Under the pieces are notes generated by a model. The model was not told the DNA's origin. It saw nothing but the letters and a program-made list of their open reading frames with translations, and ran no database searches. Positions 37,106 to 42,470 of a stretch of DNA of 64,000 bases are shown piece by piece. Within the stretch, counting starts at the first letter, position 1. The number at the start of each line of letters is the position of its first letter. This stretch comes from an uncultured archaeon. Its GTDB lineage: Archaea; Nanohalarchaeota; Nanosalinia; Nanosalinales; Nanosalinaceae. The DNA is taken from the NCBI GenBank assembly GCA_964421955.1, contig CAYQYU010000004.1, forward strand, positions 1 to 64,000, read 5' to 3'. Made by a program: the position numbers and the translations under genes.

Positions 37106-39505
37106 CTAGCCGAACTTGCCGAGACCGCTCTGCTTCCCCTTGCCCTTCAGCTGGTCCTCGGTGTAATCGAACACTTTCAGGACACGGTGGGACGCGGGAA
37201 CGATCTGGTTCTCGATGTAGTACTCGGGGTCATAGTCCTCCGCGTACTTCACCAGTTCGGCGCGGGAGGAAATATTGCCGCCTCCCTTCGTGATCACGTA
37301 GTCGATGGTGGTTCCCGGTGAGATGTCGTCGCCTCTATTTATCGCCTTCTTGGCGGCCTCGACGTGGGGAGCGGTCGACTTGTAGTTCTCCGGCTTCTTC
37401 GTCAACTGGGTGTAGATCCTGAGCTTCTCGACCGGAACATCCCCCGCCTTCATATCCCCGACAGTCTTCTTCACGTACTCTGCCGCGTCTTCAATCTCTC
37501 CCTGTAGAACCTTTCTCAAGACTTCCTTCTGCGTTTCCTTTGCAACAGGAGACCAGTCCCTCCTGACCTGCTCGAACCCGGTGATTTTGAGGCCTCCTTT
37601 TTCATCCATAAGCGCGTACTTTTTCTTCGCACCCTCTCCCGATTCAGTGGAGGTGAAGAATCCGCGGGGGAAGAAGCCCTCGAACTCCAGCTCCATGAAG
37701 GACGGCAGCTGGTCGTTGACCGCCTCAAGGAAATTATCGATACGGTCCTGGATGTCGTCGCCCTTCAGGAACAGGGAGTCGGTGTCGCCATAGACGACCT
37801 CGAAACCTTCTTCCTCCGCGTGGTTGATCGCCTCCTGGATGTATTTCCTGCCGAGGAATGTGGTCGCCTGGGCAGATTCACGGGAGTACCACCGGGCACC
37901 GTCATAACCCAGGTAGCCATAGAAGCTGTTCGCGAGAATCTTCTCCGCCTGCTGCCTGGAGTCAAGCGACCGGTATTCTTGAGAGTCCGGTTCAAGGTTC
38001 TCCATCTCCTCTTTAAGGCTATAGCGGTCCTCAACCAGTCCCTCTACGAGTTCGGGGAAGAATCCCTGATCGTCCTGGCAGAAGTAGAAATCGTAATCCT
38101 CCATCTCCATTCGATCTTCACAGCCGTCCAGATTAAGGGTGTCAGGCGAGATGTTGTGGGACACCATTACTGTGGGATAAAGAGACCGGAAGTCCAGCAG
38201 AACTATGTCGTTGTGGAGCCCCGCCTCTGGTGTATAGACAAAGCCCCCCTCGTAAGCTCCAATTCGTCGTCTTCTTGAGCGCTCTTCGCGCGTCGGTCTG
38301 TTCAGGGCAAGCATATCCCGGGCATAAGCTTCCCGGAGAAGAAAGTTCTCGGTCAGCTGGCCGTAGGTCAGTCTGCACGCATCAAACGGTATCAGTCCCG
38401 CGATCCTCGAAAGCTCTAGCATCTGTGGTATCAGCTCCTCTCCGAGCTCGTAAGCGAGCTCCGAATCTTTCAGTGCGTACTCCGCAAACCTCTCCAGGTC
38501 CTCTTTCTGCTCCCAGGATTCTTTCATATCTTCCCAGCTCATCTCGTCCTTCCTCCTGCCAAGAATCTCCTCGGCGACTGAGTCAAGGTCGAGCACCTCA
38601 GAGTCCAGTCCAGGAGAGACCACGTGCGCGATAAACGGGTAGAGGTCGAGGTGCATCCTCCCCTTCAACCGGGCACCCGAAAAACGCCCTCTTCTGTTAA
38701 ACTTCATCCTTTCTCCCGATCTTCCGAGAGACAGCTCGAGGGCGTGGTGCTGTGCTCTTTCTCTCAGAACGTCAAAGTCGAACTCGTCCGTGTTGTAGCC
38801 CGTCAGTATGTCGACGTCGCGTTCTTCCACTACCTCTATCAGGCGCTCGATGATCTCTTTCTCCGACTCGACCACCTCTACATCTTCTGAACCAATGTCG
38901 GCAGTTGTCAACAGCTTACTGTAGCCGTCGCTGTAGAAAGAAGCCATTATGATTTCATCATTGTACACTTCAAGGTCGAACGCCAGGGTCTGGAGCTCCA
39001 TCTCTGGTCCTTCCACGTTTGTCCGGATATCTTCGATATCCACCGCCACATCGAAATCTTCCCTGTCAACCTCCTCTCCCTTGATCTCTATCCAGGTAAC
39101 CGGTTTGATCTGGTTATCGACCAGGAAACGCTTGTAGAATGGGATGTCGAACTCCCTGCACTCTTTAACTCCTTCAATATCGGCGATTTCTGACCGGAGC
39201 TTCGGCACATCCGGCGGAACATAGGTGTAAATCTTGAGAGTCTCTACCTCTTGGTTTAGATCCTTCTTTTTGACCCTCTCGACATCCAGAACTTCAATAT
39301 TTTCGCCCTCGTGGCTGAAATCTGTCTCCTCTATGCCTTCCTCAGCTTTCTCTATATCCCCCGGTATAGCGTAAAAGTATGGCAAAAAGTCGCGCTCCAG
39401 GGCCAGAACGTTCCTGCCGTCTTTGTCCTTGCCGAAGACTCTTACAACTACCTCGTCTTCCTCTATCCGGTAGTCGACATCAGTTACCTGGAGCTTCAGC
39501 TTCAT
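37106..39505 (-). CDS. polB: Family B DNA polymerase
   Basis: ExoI FDLE, ExoII GYN...FD, DFRSLYP, KILANSFYGY, YGDTDS, C-terminal PIP box QSGLGKF. Confidence 0.97.
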   Translation of the reverse strand: MKLKLQVTDVDYRIEEDEVVVRVFGKDKDGRNVLALERDFLPYFYAIPGDIEKAEEGIEETDFSHEGENIEVLDVERVKKKDLNQEVETLKIYTYVPPDVPKLRSEIADIEGVKECREFDIPFYKRFLVDNQIKPVTWIEIKGEEVDREDFDVAVDIEDIRTNVEGPEMELQTLAFDLEVYNDEIIMASFYSDGYSKLLTTADIGSEDVEVVESEKEIIERLIEVVEERDVDILTGYNTDEFDFDVLRERAQHHALELSLGRSGERMKFNRRGRFSGARLKGRMHLDLYPFIAHVVSPGLDSEVLDLDSVAEEILGRRKDEMSWEDMKESWEQKEDLERFAEYALKDSELAYELGEELIPQMLELSRIAGLIPFDACRLTYGQLTENFLLREAYARDMLALNRPTREERSRRRRIGAYEGGFVYTPEAGLHNDIVLLDFRSLYPTVMVSHNISPDTLNLDGCEDRMEMEDYDFYFCQDDQGFFPELVEGLVEDRYSLKEEMENLEPDSQEYRSLDSRQQAEKILANSFYGYLGYDGARWYSRESAQATTFLGRKYIQEAINHAEEEGFEVVYGDTDSLFLKGDDIQDRIDNFLEAVNDQLPSFMELEFEGFFPRGFFTSTESGEGAKKKYALMDEKGGLKITGFEQVRRDWSPVAKETQKEVLRKVLQGEIEDAAEYVKKTVGDMKAGDVPVEKLRIYTQLTKKPENYKSTAPHVEAAKKAINRGDDISPGTTIDYVITKGGGNISSRAELVKYAEDYDPEYYIENQIVPASHRVLKVFDYTEDQLKGKGKQSGLGKFG

Positions 39506-40423: not shown

Positions 40424-40621
40424 ATGGCAGAACTACCACTTGCACCGGTCAAGCGAATCATTAAACAGTCAGGAGCTTCTCGAGTCGCAGAAGACGCGGT
40501 TGAAGAGCTCAGGGACGAACTGGAGAGGCACGCTGAGCAGAGAGCGAGGGAGGCAAAGAGGTACGCGGAGCATGCAGGCCGCAAGACCGTTCAGGCGGAC
40601 GATGTCAAGGCCTCACAGTAA
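40424..40621 (+). CDS. Archaeal histone (HMf family)
   Basis: ELPLAPVKRIIK..GA.RV..DA...HAGRKTV.A.D; GGAGGTGA SD. Confidence 0.95.
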   Translation: MAELPLAPVKRIIKQSGASRVAEDAVEELRDELERHAEQRAREAKRYAEHAGRKTVQADDVKASQ

Positions 40622-40662: not shown

Positions 40663-41415
40663 ATGCGCATAGAGAACAGTTTTATTCTCGCGCCAGGTAT
40701 AGGCGAAAAAACAGAAAGGCGGCTCTGGAAGAACGATATCACGCACTGGAACGATTTTGAATCGTCAGATGCCCTGAATGGAAAACAGGATCGTGTCCTG
40801 AACTTTCTCGAGAAAGCCCGCAGAAACCTGGATGTCGGGAACACTGTTTTCTTCAAGGACAAACTTCCCGCGAACAGCAACTGGAGACTCTACAGGAACT
40901 TTGAAAGCCAGGCGTGCTTCTTTGACATAGAGACAACAGGGCTCGACAGGGAGCAGAACAAAGTCACCACCGTGAGTTTCCACAGGAACGGGGAGACCAA
41001 AACACTGGTTGCGGGCGAAGACCTTACACAGGAGAACTTGGAGAAGGAGTTCTTCAAATCGAGCATGCTTGTGTCATTCAATGGAAAGCGGTTCGATCAG
41101 CCATTCCTCGAACACAACTTTGACCTAGATATCGAGAAACCGCATGTTGACCTGATGTATCCCTGCCGGAAGCTCGGACTCTCGGGCGGGCTGAAGAAGA
41201 TCGAGGAACAGCTCCAGATCGACAGAGAACAGGAAGACATTGACGGAAAAGCTGCAATAAGACTGTGGAAACGCTACGAGAACAAGGATGATCAAGCGGC
41301 GTTGGAGAAGCTGGTCGAGTACAACCAGTACGATGCCAGAAACCTCAGACAGTTGTTTGAAGAGGTTCACAGCCGCTTAACCCAGAAGATCTATCATCCG
41401 CATATCCGGCATTAG
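40663..41415 (+). CDS. YprB-like RNase H-fold (DEDD) exonuclease
   Basis: FFDIETTGL, SFNGKRFD.PFL, GGLK.IE..L, YN..D. Confidence 0.9.
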   Translation: MRIENSFILAPGIGEKTERRLWKNDITHWNDFESSDALNGKQDRVLNFLEKARRNLDVGNTVFFKDKLPANSNWRLYRNFESQACFFDIETTGLDREQNKVTTVSFHRNGETKTLVAGEDLTQENLEKEFFKSSMLVSFNGKRFDQPFLEHNFDLDIEKPHVDLMYPCRKLGLSGGLKKIEEQLQIDREQEDIDGKAAIRLWKRYENKDDQAALEKLVEYNQYDARNLRQLFEEVHSRLTQKIYHPHIRH

Positions 41416-41451
41416 CGGAATCCTTATAAAGTTGGGAGCCAAAGGTTCAGG

Positions 41452-41990
41452 TGAAAATGGCCTTGGTTCACAATACTTACCAGCTCACCGGAAACATGTG
41501 GGTGGATCTGGTGAGCACCCGCTATAACCAGTCCAAGGCCAGGGCCTCTCACATTATTAACAAGTTTCTAGCAGAGTAGAGTGGGATGACGCCTTGGCCT
41601 CTTAACGAGGCCAGTCACGCCGACCACGAACAACTCAAAGCCAAACTGAACTCAAGTTCCTGCCATCTCTACACCGTGGAACTTGCAAGAGGGTGGATGC
41701 TGCTTGCTAGGTGGTGTCCATCCTCCGGAACTTTTTCTGTCTACTCGAATCCACGTACCACGCCAGAAGGTGTACACAATCGACGCGAACACACGGAACT
41801 TCGAAACCGAACTGCAGGCAATAGAGTCCGAGAACTCTAGAGGCAGAGCGGAGCTTCACTCAGACGCAGACGTAGTTCCGGCCACGGCGCTATAGAAATC
41901 TGCTTGAGGAATAGGATCTCACCTAGAGGTCTTGCTCCCACAGCTTTCGTTGGTCAAAGCTGTTCCAGAGCAACAGCCCGGGTGCTCCGA
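41452..41990 (+). ncRNA. Candidate large structured RNA containing small ORFs
   Basis: CTTATAAA box at 41423; at least 7 helices with G-U pairs on the + strand, including a 17-bp hairpin at 41689-41725; no long ORF. Confidence 0.5.
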
Positions 41991-41993
41991 TAG

Positions 41994-42470
41994 CTACTCG
42001 TATGCCCCGGACTCGTAAGCAGCCCATCCATTAGCGATAGAGTCCAGCATCGAGGTGAAAGTCTTCGACGGCTTCACAACTTTCTGTCGACCCTGGTTGC
42101 CTTCGGAGCGATCACGATATTCTAGATATTCGTACTTGATCACGCCCAGCCTTCTTAACTTGGGCAAGATCTTGTTCTTGAGGTTGCTCTTGCCTTTCTC
42201 ATGGCCCCATTCATCAAAATTATTCAGTTTCTCAGAATCTATCTCGCCCTCATCCTTAAGCTCGCGTAAAAAAATCTTGGCGTACTTGTTCCTTTTTGGT
42301 GACTGCTCCCGTGGAAAGAACAGGTCAACGATCTTCTCCCAGTTCCATGCGCGATCACTTAACTTGTACTTTTCACGGTCCTCGGGGATCGCTATTGAGT
42401 TTTTCGTGACTATCGTTGAGGACTTTCTGGCAGCCTCGTCAACGAAAGGATGTTTACTGTCTTCAGTCAT
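41994..42470 (-). CDS. Hypothetical protein, probable winged helix
   Basis: Basic 158 aa; KSNLKNKILPKLRRLGVIKY pattern. Confidence 0.7.
   Translation of the reverse strand: MTEDSKHPFVDEAARKSSTIVTKNSIAIPEDREKYKLSDRAWNWEKIVDLFFPREQSPKRNKYAKIFLRELKDEGEIDSEKLNNFDEWGHEKGKSNLKNKILPKLRRLGVIKYEYLEYRDRSEGNQGRQKVVKPSKTFTSMLDSIANGWAAYESGAYE

Follow-up and report, generated by a model that had tools for sequence, protein, structure and literature searches.

The 64,000-nt stretch of DNA analysed here (the window; contig CAYQYU010000004.1, assembly GCA_964421955.1) derives from an uncultured archaeon of the Nanosalinaceae, and this report concerns a gap poor in open reading frames (ORFs) at positions 41416-41993. 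Nanohaloarchaea belong to the DPANN archaea and are symbionts whose tiny genomes consist almost entirely of coding sequence. The gap is a conserved plus-strand unit of about 440 nt (41457-41895), carried by the nanohaloarchaeal family that includes Candidatus Nanosalina and Nanohalobium, and the unit is composed of a first small ORF (sORF1), a structured spacer that opens with a kink-turn (k-turn), and a further small ORF (sORF3).

The unit and its distribution

The gap spans 578 bp, holds only short ORFs in the ORF list of the window, and lies between an RNase-H-like exonuclease gene on the plus strand (40663-41415), whose product matches PF13482 with an E value of 5e-43, and a convergent minus-strand gene for a 158-aa protein (41994-42470). 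The identical neighbour pair was found around the unit in 23/23 relative loci retrieved. A previous reading of the DNA made from the sequence alone (hereafter the sequence-only reading) had described a gap of about 580 bp preceded by CTTATAAA at 41423, as is the case, and had proposed a highly structured RNA of about 540 nt carrying a coding-like peptide. The structured and coding character was borne out, and the length has to be reduced to the 440 nt or so that are conserved.

Of 24 further genomes from this family, 22 contained DNA matching the gap, with 67-75% identity between genera; outside the family it was matched in one of seven genomes of family f3 and 0/9 of f2, f4 and f5 together. 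A covariance model built from the spacer (model R1, not to be confused with the pairing segment R1 below) gave exactly one match per genome in 44 of 49 family genomes in addition to that of the window itself, and the five genomes with no match are 68-85% complete. Outside the family the model matched 1/10 genomes in f3 and 0/10 in f2, f4 and f5, and elsewhere in the phylum the unit is hardly seen. In the comparisons that follow, early counts refer to 24 orthologues and extended counts to 41 aligned sequences.

The octamer CTTATAAA (41423-41430, plus strand) is a TATA-like promoter box, and a TTWWAA-type box was located 32-40 nt 5' of the sORF1 ATG in 24/24 orthologues. Because this distance fits the known archaeal spacing between TATA box and start, the transcript is probably leaderless or near-leaderless. 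Scans for terminators and sigma-70 promoters returned 0 sites. The tail between the conserved element and the convergent gene (41896-41993) displayed no sequence conservation; its fold z was -0.93 in the window and below -1.64 in 10/23 orthologues, so that the further hairpins the sequence-only reading had drawn as far as 41987 (41896-41990) were not confirmed. The fold of the whole gap was mildly better than that of shuffled sequences, with z of -2.60 on the plus strand and -1.90 on the minus strand.

Two small coding frames and a covarying spacer

The first cistron, sORF1, extends from 41457 to 41579 on the plus strand, encodes 40 aa (MALVHNTYQL...KFLAE) and terminates with TAG. Its frame is open for 30-46 codons from a conserved ATG in 41/41 aligned orthologues, and the other two plus-strand frames across it are closed by stops in 24/24. 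Length differences among orthologues are whole codons, and the stop alternates among TAA, TAG and TGA at one position. Of 22 further non-duplicate loci, 18 contained sORF1 and three were cut off at the locus end. The motifs M-A-L, TGNM, D-L-V-R, K-A-K-A, S-I-I-N and L-A-E are kept across genera with a mean column identity of 54%, and a leucine is retained via two-base codon changes (TTG to CTA or CTG). The ratio of non-synonymous to synonymous variation (pN/pS) was 0.66, compared with 0.97 and 0.78 in the shifted frames, which is a weaker signal than that of sORF3. The coding signal of sORF1 is real but modest, because the same bases also form RNA pairs. Twelve relatives were found in databases, all called "hypothetical protein" or left without a name.

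The second cistron, sORF3, occupies 41770-41895 on the plus strand and ends with TAG at 41893-41895, so that the product has 41 aa if GTG 41770 is the start and 38 aa if ATC 41779 is. This is the peptide frame to which the sequence-only reading had drawn attention, and it proved to be genuine. In the unit it is 38-41 aa long and open in 41/41 orthologues, its stop codons interchange, its variation by codon position follows the order 3 > 1 > 2, and its pN/pS is 0.42, where the shifted frames give 0.93 and 1.59. The consensus reads M-[DN]-A-N-T-R-x-F-E-[AT]-E-L-Q-A-Q...V-x-A-T-A-L. Both small ORFs thus bear the marks of protein-coding sequence, sORF3 in every respect and sORF1 with weak codon-position periodicity. 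Neither matched a Pfam or NCBIfam family at E<=1 or had a usable neighbour in the ESM Atlas, and a complex prediction for the two products together scored 0.02.

The lack of an ATG start, which had made the peptide appear unusual, is confirmed for this genome and does not extend to the family: ATG occupies the M position in 25/41 orthologues, and ATC, ATT, ATA or CAA does so in the other 16. Among these 16, an in-frame GTG is present three codons upstream in 14 and four codons upstream in one. Since nearly all orthologues that lack the ATG carry such a GTG, translation in the window most likely starts at GTG 41770, which would yield the 41-aa product. This GTG is contained in the Shine-Dalgarno (SD)-like motif AAGGUG (41767-41772, plus strand), which fits the 3' end of the 16S rRNA, GGAUCACCUCC. 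GGTG is conserved 5' of sORF3, and genome-wide it peaks at -14 to -9 before ATGs. Locus L029 has no canonical in-frame start for sORF3, and its close relative L060 has none within the ten upstream codons examined. In this clade (L029 lies at G014:C15) the codon at the conserved N-terminal position is ATT, GGTG is out of frame and there is no in-frame ATG, GTG or TTG. This points either to a near-cognate start codon, AUU or AUA, or to a problem with the sequence that escaped detection.

A hidden Markov model (HMM) of sORF3 had matches in 45/49 family genomes. Searched against 1.84 billion representative proteins, it gave only 40 matches, all of which were small or aligned at the C-terminus; the longer ones, predictions of 60-107 aa among them, carry unconserved N-terminal extensions translated through the spacer. 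Weaker HMM matches brought to light stand-alone sORF3 paralogues, as exemplified by a 38-aa product beginning MNPNYRNFETEIQALKEY... (MNPNYRNFETEIQALKEYEMETVRISPQLLPKKATPQA), encoded on the minus strand at about 20829-20945 of contig G000:C14 (L031:530-646) with its own TATA-like box and AGGTGA. It sits downstream of a small winged-helix-like gene, and second sORF3-like copies likewise occur in G007, G016 and G068. Hence sORF3 is part of a small microprotein family that has multiple copies and is marked by the N-terminal motif N-x-R-x-F-E-x-E-[LI]-Q-A.

The non-coding spacer of about 190 nt between the two small ORFs is under strong selection for RNA structure. Four helical elements covary, namely a hairpin inside sORF1 (H1), the k-turn stem-loop, and the hairpins P3 and P4. 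In the alignment of orthologous regions, 40 named pairs (H1, the canonical (C) and non-canonical (NC) stems of the k-turn, P2 and P4) were scored on 41 sequences against 500 shuffles. Standard pairs filled 92.5% of the cells, compared with 79.3% after shuffling and 37-44% with slid partners. Changes on both sides were counted at 30 pairs in 216 cells, compared with 18.9 and 58.5 in shuffles, and 0/500 shuffles reached any of the observed measures. The spacer is a well-supported candidate structured-RNA family.

The first spacer element (41581-41627, plus strand), which begins 2 nt 3' of the sORF1 stop codon, is by its sequence a canonical L7Ae-type k-turn. Its C-stem (41581-41584/41624-41627) is followed by the bulge GAU (41585-41587), the tandem G.A/A.G pairs (41588-41589/41622-41623), and the NC stem together with P2 (41591-41620), giving the layout GYGG-GAU-GA...GA-CCRC. 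The three-nucleotide bulge, the tandem trans G.A/A.G and the Watson-Crick C helix of the standard definition (PMC6298567) are all present. Ten positions, G41583, G41584, A41586, U41587, G41588, A41589, G41622, A41623, C41624 and C41625, are invariant in 41/41 sequences. The pairs of the C-stem and NC stem are 100% paired with compensatory changes (CG in 32 and UA in 9 sequences at one pair; the C helix alternates among CG, UG and UA), and all eight pairs of P2 show compensatory changes. P2 (41594-41614) corresponds to the hairpin UGGCCUC/GAGGCCA that had been drawn by eye.

Huang, Ashraf and Lilley 2019 (PMC6298567) describe k-turns in l7ae leaders that carry a GAU bulge and tandem G:A/A:G pairs, and report that a G:C pair at -1b:-1n blocks ion-induced folding and that L7Ae still folds such k-turns. 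In the present element the -1b:-1n pair is G:C in 41/41 sequences. Since the GAU bulge and this G:C pair define the type reported to need protein for folding, the predicted k-turn is likely bound by L7Ae, whose gene is encoded in the genome away from this locus. Some 50 nt before that gene (G000:C6; L073:1406-1455), its leader reads, by eye, GGCAACC-GAU-GA-CCCUUU-GA-GGUGCU...AUG. It could form a k-turn or k-loop with the SD sequence (GAGGUG) as 3' strand, resembling the autoregulatory leaders of PMC6298567.

Beyond the k-turn, a single-stranded A/C-rich linker (41628-41652, plus strand) varies in sequence and length and has no conserved pairing. It is followed by P3 (41653-41685, plus strand; z -1.72), which forms 8 bp in the window between CAAGUUCC and GGAACUUG (41653-41660/41678-41685) and presents the conserved CU-rich loop UGCCAUCUCUACACCGU. 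The arms of P3 shift in the alignment, and each orthologue was folded alone instead of being scored by column. The hairpin formed in 24/24, with 6-33 enclosing pairs around the CU-rich motif and outer stems that differ in sequence. The next hairpin, P4 (41689-41725, plus strand; z -4.32), is the 17-bp stem for which the sequence-only reading had counted six G-U pairs, and the window has exactly six. In the alignment, its 17 pairs are 92.8% paired, 13 of them with compensatory changes, and one G-U pair is invariant in 41/41. Because G-U pairs of P4 are invariant or near-invariant, the RNA strand is the plus strand, as had been proposed from them. The apical loop (41706-41711) has the self-complementary palindrome UUGCAA as consensus and reads UUGCUA in the window, and it is closed by C-G, G-U and U-G pairs that hardly vary; the loop might serve for dimerisation through kissing loops or for the binding of a protein. 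Inside sORF1, H1 (41484-41515, plus strand; z -2.65) comprises nine pairs that are 88.9% paired, six of them compensatory.

The longer-range contacts drawn in the sequence-only reading fared less well than its local hairpins. The helix CCGGAACU/AGUUCCGG (41725/41874) was 53.4% paired, no excess over shuffles. For AGCAGA/UCUGCU (41570/41899), a complement of at least 6 nt was found in 4/24 orthologues and one case looks compensatory (window versus L004); the duplex energies were better than those with shuffled tails (0/300) and not better than those with non-cognate tails (112/2000). The possible pseudoknot UACACC/GGUGUA (41670/41769) was 74% paired, with 43/500 shuffles as good. Duplexes of the P3 loop with the SD-like motif averaged -9.69 kcal/mol for cognate pairs, -9.13 for permuted pairs (192/2000) and -8.16 for shuffled loops (0/200). 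The two segments are complementary in composition, with no significant covariation or cognate preference.

In Rfam, the whole window gave 0 hits at the gathering score, and the only match in the gap at E<=10 was rmf, with 16.8 bits on the minus strand. The gap did not match the tmRNA, RNase P or signal recognition particle (SRP) models. An identity as RNase P RNA was rejected, the RNaseP_arch match lying elsewhere at G000:C12:6170-6475 (49 bits, E 3e-13), and so was an identity as SRP RNA, with an Archaea_SRP match at C1:9831-10094 (124.5 bits). The RNase P RNA scored 49 bits against a cut-off of 84 despite a full-length model match, and the Rfam model thus under-detects nanohaloarchaeal RNase P RNA. 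A box C/D small RNA (sRNA) was likewise rejected, because the 3' strand of the k-turn has no CUGA in register and reads (G/A)CCGACC instead, there are no C'/D' boxes, and no Rfam hit was obtained; so was an H/ACA sRNA, because what follows the C-stem on its 3' side is the variable A/C-rich linker, where neither a lower stem nor a pseudouridylation pocket is present and no ACA is conserved at a constant distance. Across Rfam, Pfam and NCBIfam, the element is outside every curated RNA or protein family searched.

Proposed coupling of RNA structure and translation

On balance, we consider it fairly probable that the unit is a bicistronic plus-strand mRNA for two microproteins, joined by a spacer selected for structure and containing the k-turn, and that the structure of the RNA is coupled to its translation. 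This coupling is suggested by four overlapping complementary segments. R1 (GGCCUUGG, 41459-41466) overlaps the sORF1 start codon; R2 (CCAAGGCC, 41533-41540) comprises the K-A-K-A codons of sORF1 and is complementary to both R1 and R3; R3 (GCCUUGG, 41591-41597) and R4 (41607-41614) are the 5' and 3' strands of the k-turn stem and complementary to each other, all on the plus strand. Among the 41 sequences, R1:R2 was standard-paired in 88.9% of cells versus 13-59% when slid, with five double-sided changes (14/500 shuffles as high), and R2:R3 in 92.1% versus 13-57%, also with five double-sided changes (1/500 shuffles as high). Concerted changes run through all four segments in L028/L029 (G to A, C to U, G to A, C to U from R1 to R4) and in L061 (U to C, A to G, U to C, A to G), and in L030 the segments R2, R3 and R4 are rewritten as UUUAGAG / CUCUAAA / GGUUUG. 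Constrained folding of the two conformers gave a mean difference of 0.1 kcal/mol with a standard deviation of 11, and R2:R3 was lower in 9/24. As variation is scarce and the sequences are related, this evidence for alternative pairing is suggestive and not proof.

In the proposed mechanism, sORF1 would be translated from an AUG at or adjoining the 5' end of a leaderless mRNA, and L7Ae or a relative would bind the k-turn. The segments would pair either as R1:R2 together with R3:R4 or as R2:R3. R3 is common to the k-turn stem and to R2:R3, and for this reason the equilibrium would be moved both by protein binding and by translation of sORF1: binding of the k-turn protein would free R2, which would then sequester the 5'-terminal AUG, and conversely ribosomes on sORF1 would free R3 and allow the k-turn to form. 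The result would be an attenuator-like system acting on the translation of a leaderless mRNA. Downstream, P3 with its CU-rich, anti-SD-like loop and P4 would probably set access to the ribosome-binding site of sORF3. An internal ribosome entry site, one of the layouts of which the sequence-only reading was reminded, is unnecessary given the SD-like motif, though internal initiation may still be under the control of the structured spacer.

Several points weigh against this interpretation. The pairings R1:R2 and R2:R3 vary little, the five double-changed cells of each coming from about three lineages, and an excess over shuffles can arise among related sequences even in the absence of structure. 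The energy gap between the conformers scatters as widely as stated above, and some of the folding constraints were misplaced by the alignment. The k-turn is about 140 nt from the SD-like motif of sORF3, whereas in l7ae leaders it overlaps the SD sequence, and the pairing of the P3 loop with that motif was not significant against non-cognate pairs (192/2000; 43/500). The coding signal of sORF1 is modest at a pN/pS of 0.66, in a sequence also constrained by RNA pairing. Transcript ends, translation and the binding of L7Ae are all predicted from nucleotide sequence; a look-up of public sequencing runs listed four DNA runs, all from one study, that contain the sequence, and no RNA run.

The strongest competitor treats the spacer (about 41580-41765) as a stand-alone L7Ae-bound non-coding RNA or ribonucleoprotein (RNP) scaffold, possibly processed, with the ORFs merely sharing its promoter as in a dual-function RNA. 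We regard this as possible but unlikely. The spacer is conserved as much as the coding parts or more, with a k-turn core invariant in 41/41 and a conserved P4 G-U pair and near-palindromic UUGCAA loop, and, like core RNAs, it is single-copy and present in nearly all genomes of the family; the CU-rich loop of P3 could moreover base-pair with the SD motifs of further mRNAs. The spacer, however, showed neither processing signals nor a promoter of its own, and no Rfam family matched it. The placement of the k-turn 2 nt past the sORF1 stop, the end of the spacer in the SD-like motif of sORF3, and the complementarity of R3 to the coding segment R2 all argue for action in cis.

It is more doubtful still that sORF1 is a regulatory leader ORF in which only the act of translation, or the nascent chain, matters and would remodel the RNA and thereby control sORF3, much as leader peptides do in bacterial attenuators. 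Purifying selection on sORF1 is weak, its stop abuts the k-turn and R2 lies within it. In the most divergent genus, an ORF of 35 aa starting at that ATG is retained, but its sequence is almost unrelated and it ends in the k-turn UGA. The conservation of sORF1 motifs across genera at 54% mean column identity, part of which may reflect RNA constraint, and the preservation of leucine through two-base codon changes count against this reading.

A decayed gene, or a frameshift or readthrough cassette joining 42 aa, a TAG, 84 aa and then the +1 peptide frame, is very improbable. In the window, 41451-41579 and 41586-41840 are indeed in one frame, separated by a single TAG, and relative to the 84-aa ORF the peptide is read in the +1 frame. 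This middle ORF, which starts at the ATG within GGGAUGA and would have been a third coding frame, is spurious and was rejected: from the same ATG it measures 3-71 aa in relatives. In addition, sORF1 and sORF3 are 184-322 nt apart without any constant frame relation, the length differences between hairpin loops are not multiples of three, the stop position of sORF1 is kept with all three stop codons in use, and no longer homologue exists, every match ending with the 38 residues and the extensions being unconserved. The analogy to transfer-messenger RNA (tmRNA), with the ...ATAL peptide as the tag frame of a trans-translation RNA, has next to no probability: the peptide follows a structured RNA, has no ATG in 16/41 orthologues and ends in a conserved hydrophobic A-T-A-L, but ARAGORN found 0 tRNA or tmRNA genes in the window, a search for SmpB (PF01668) returned 0 matches in the genome, which is 98.8% complete, where the control search matched in 10/14 reference genomes, no 3' end is conserved after the stop codon, ordinary starts are present (ATG in 25/41, in-frame GTG in 15 of the other 16) together with an SD-like GGUG, and stand-alone paralogues of sORF3 have their own promoter.

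Returning to the bicistronic mRNA with coupled translation, a bolder version can be put forward tentatively and with low confidence: the element might be an undescribed archaeal riboregulatory device that masks or unmasks the 5'-terminal AUG of a leaderless microprotein ORF through a four-segment 1:2/2:3/3:4 relay whose 3:4 helix is an L7Ae-dependent k-turn, or else the spacer might be the RNA of a new L7Ae RNP specific to the Nanosalinaceae. L7Ae is a ribosome and RNP assembly protein, and if the first of these were true, the pool of free L7Ae would gate the synthesis of two lineage-specific microproteins, in the manner of an attenuator that acts on translation and not on termination.

Surroundings, significance and known systems

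The convergent neighbour (41994-42470, minus strand) is itself unusually well conserved, with 71-89% identity across genera and a mean column identity of 86%, and its 158-aa product belongs to no Pfam or NCBIfam family. Its AlphaFold model (predicted local distance difference test, pLDDT, 72.5) had weak structural matches to winged-helix regulators of the PadR/LmrR/MarR type and to TFE-alpha, with a best E value of 0.009 and template-modelling (TM) scores of 0.35-0.56. Judged from the ORF list only, nearby genes (40424-40621 on the plus strand and 37106-39505 on the minus strand) comprise a 65-aa histone-like ORF, a family-B DNA polymerase and a metallophosphoesterase-like ORF, which places the element in a neighbourhood of replication and chromatin genes.

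The unit likely does something important for these cells, because it is kept in nearly every family genome despite the compactness of the genomes, yet is absent from annotation, Rfam and Pfam. It adds two microprotein families that are new, of which one has paralogues, and a candidate structured-RNA family with a textbook k-turn that is suitable for an Rfam entry. It also offers a testable case of translation control coupled to RNA structure on a leaderless archaeal mRNA, of which, to our knowledge, there are very few natural examples beyond the l7ae leader. Gene callers miss ORFs such as these and sometimes over-extend them through the spacer, as in the 60-107-aa predictions.

Literature searches on RNAs of Nanohaloarchaea turned up no description of the element. 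One metatranscriptomic study (PMC7002113) reports a conserved intergenic nanohaloarchaeal transcript of 266 nt, STRG.4577.1, which may be the element or the 264-nt SRP RNA. Nothing comparable to the attenuator-like relay was met for archaea in searches that were not aimed at that question.

Among known systems, tmRNA shares with the element a structured RNA 5' of a short ORF, in some genomes without ATG, and a small hydrophobic tail; the element differs in having no tRNA-like domain, SmpB or conserved 3' end, and in having normal starts with an SD-like motif. Box C/D and H/ACA guide sRNAs share the L7Ae-type k-turn. In contrast to box C/D RNAs, the 3' strand here carries C-GA and not a CUGA D box, and the bulged strand is GGGAUGA, with the G.A pairs made via the second GA.

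Dual-function RNAs that are both coding and structured, such as SgrS/SgrT and RNAIII/hld, resemble the element in that a transcript of a few hundred nucleotides joins conserved small ORFs and covarying structure. The element has two ORFs rather than one, is archaeal, includes a k-turn, and has no known trans target. Bacterial leader-peptide attenuators of the trp type, with their 1:2 / 2:3 / 3:4 alternative pairing, are alike in having a short 5' ORF and four overlapping complementary segments, one of them inside the ORF, such that ribosome position would choose the fold. Unlike them, the element has no terminator or oligo-U after segment 4, its 3:4 helix is a predicted protein-binding k-turn hairpin, and its mRNA appears leaderless, so that 1:2 would mask the start codon.

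The nearest parallel among known systems is the control of translation in l7ae leaders by L7Ae and a k-turn; L7Ae-binding k-turn hairpins in archaeal l7ae mRNA leaders are described by Daume et al. 2017 (PMC5539422) and Huang, Ashraf and Lilley 2019 (PMC6298567). The present element differs in lying outside the l7ae gene, which appears to have its own CC-GAU-GA...GA-GGUG leader, and in the position of its k-turn between two small ORFs, just past a stop and about 140 nt from the next SD motif. It further differs in its long NC/P2 stem and additional conserved hairpins, and L7Ae binding is here a prediction. The two are alike in the -1b:-1n G:C pair, of the kind said to require protein for folding, and in the proposed logic, by which a protein would stabilise one fold of the RNA and so alter the access of ribosomes.

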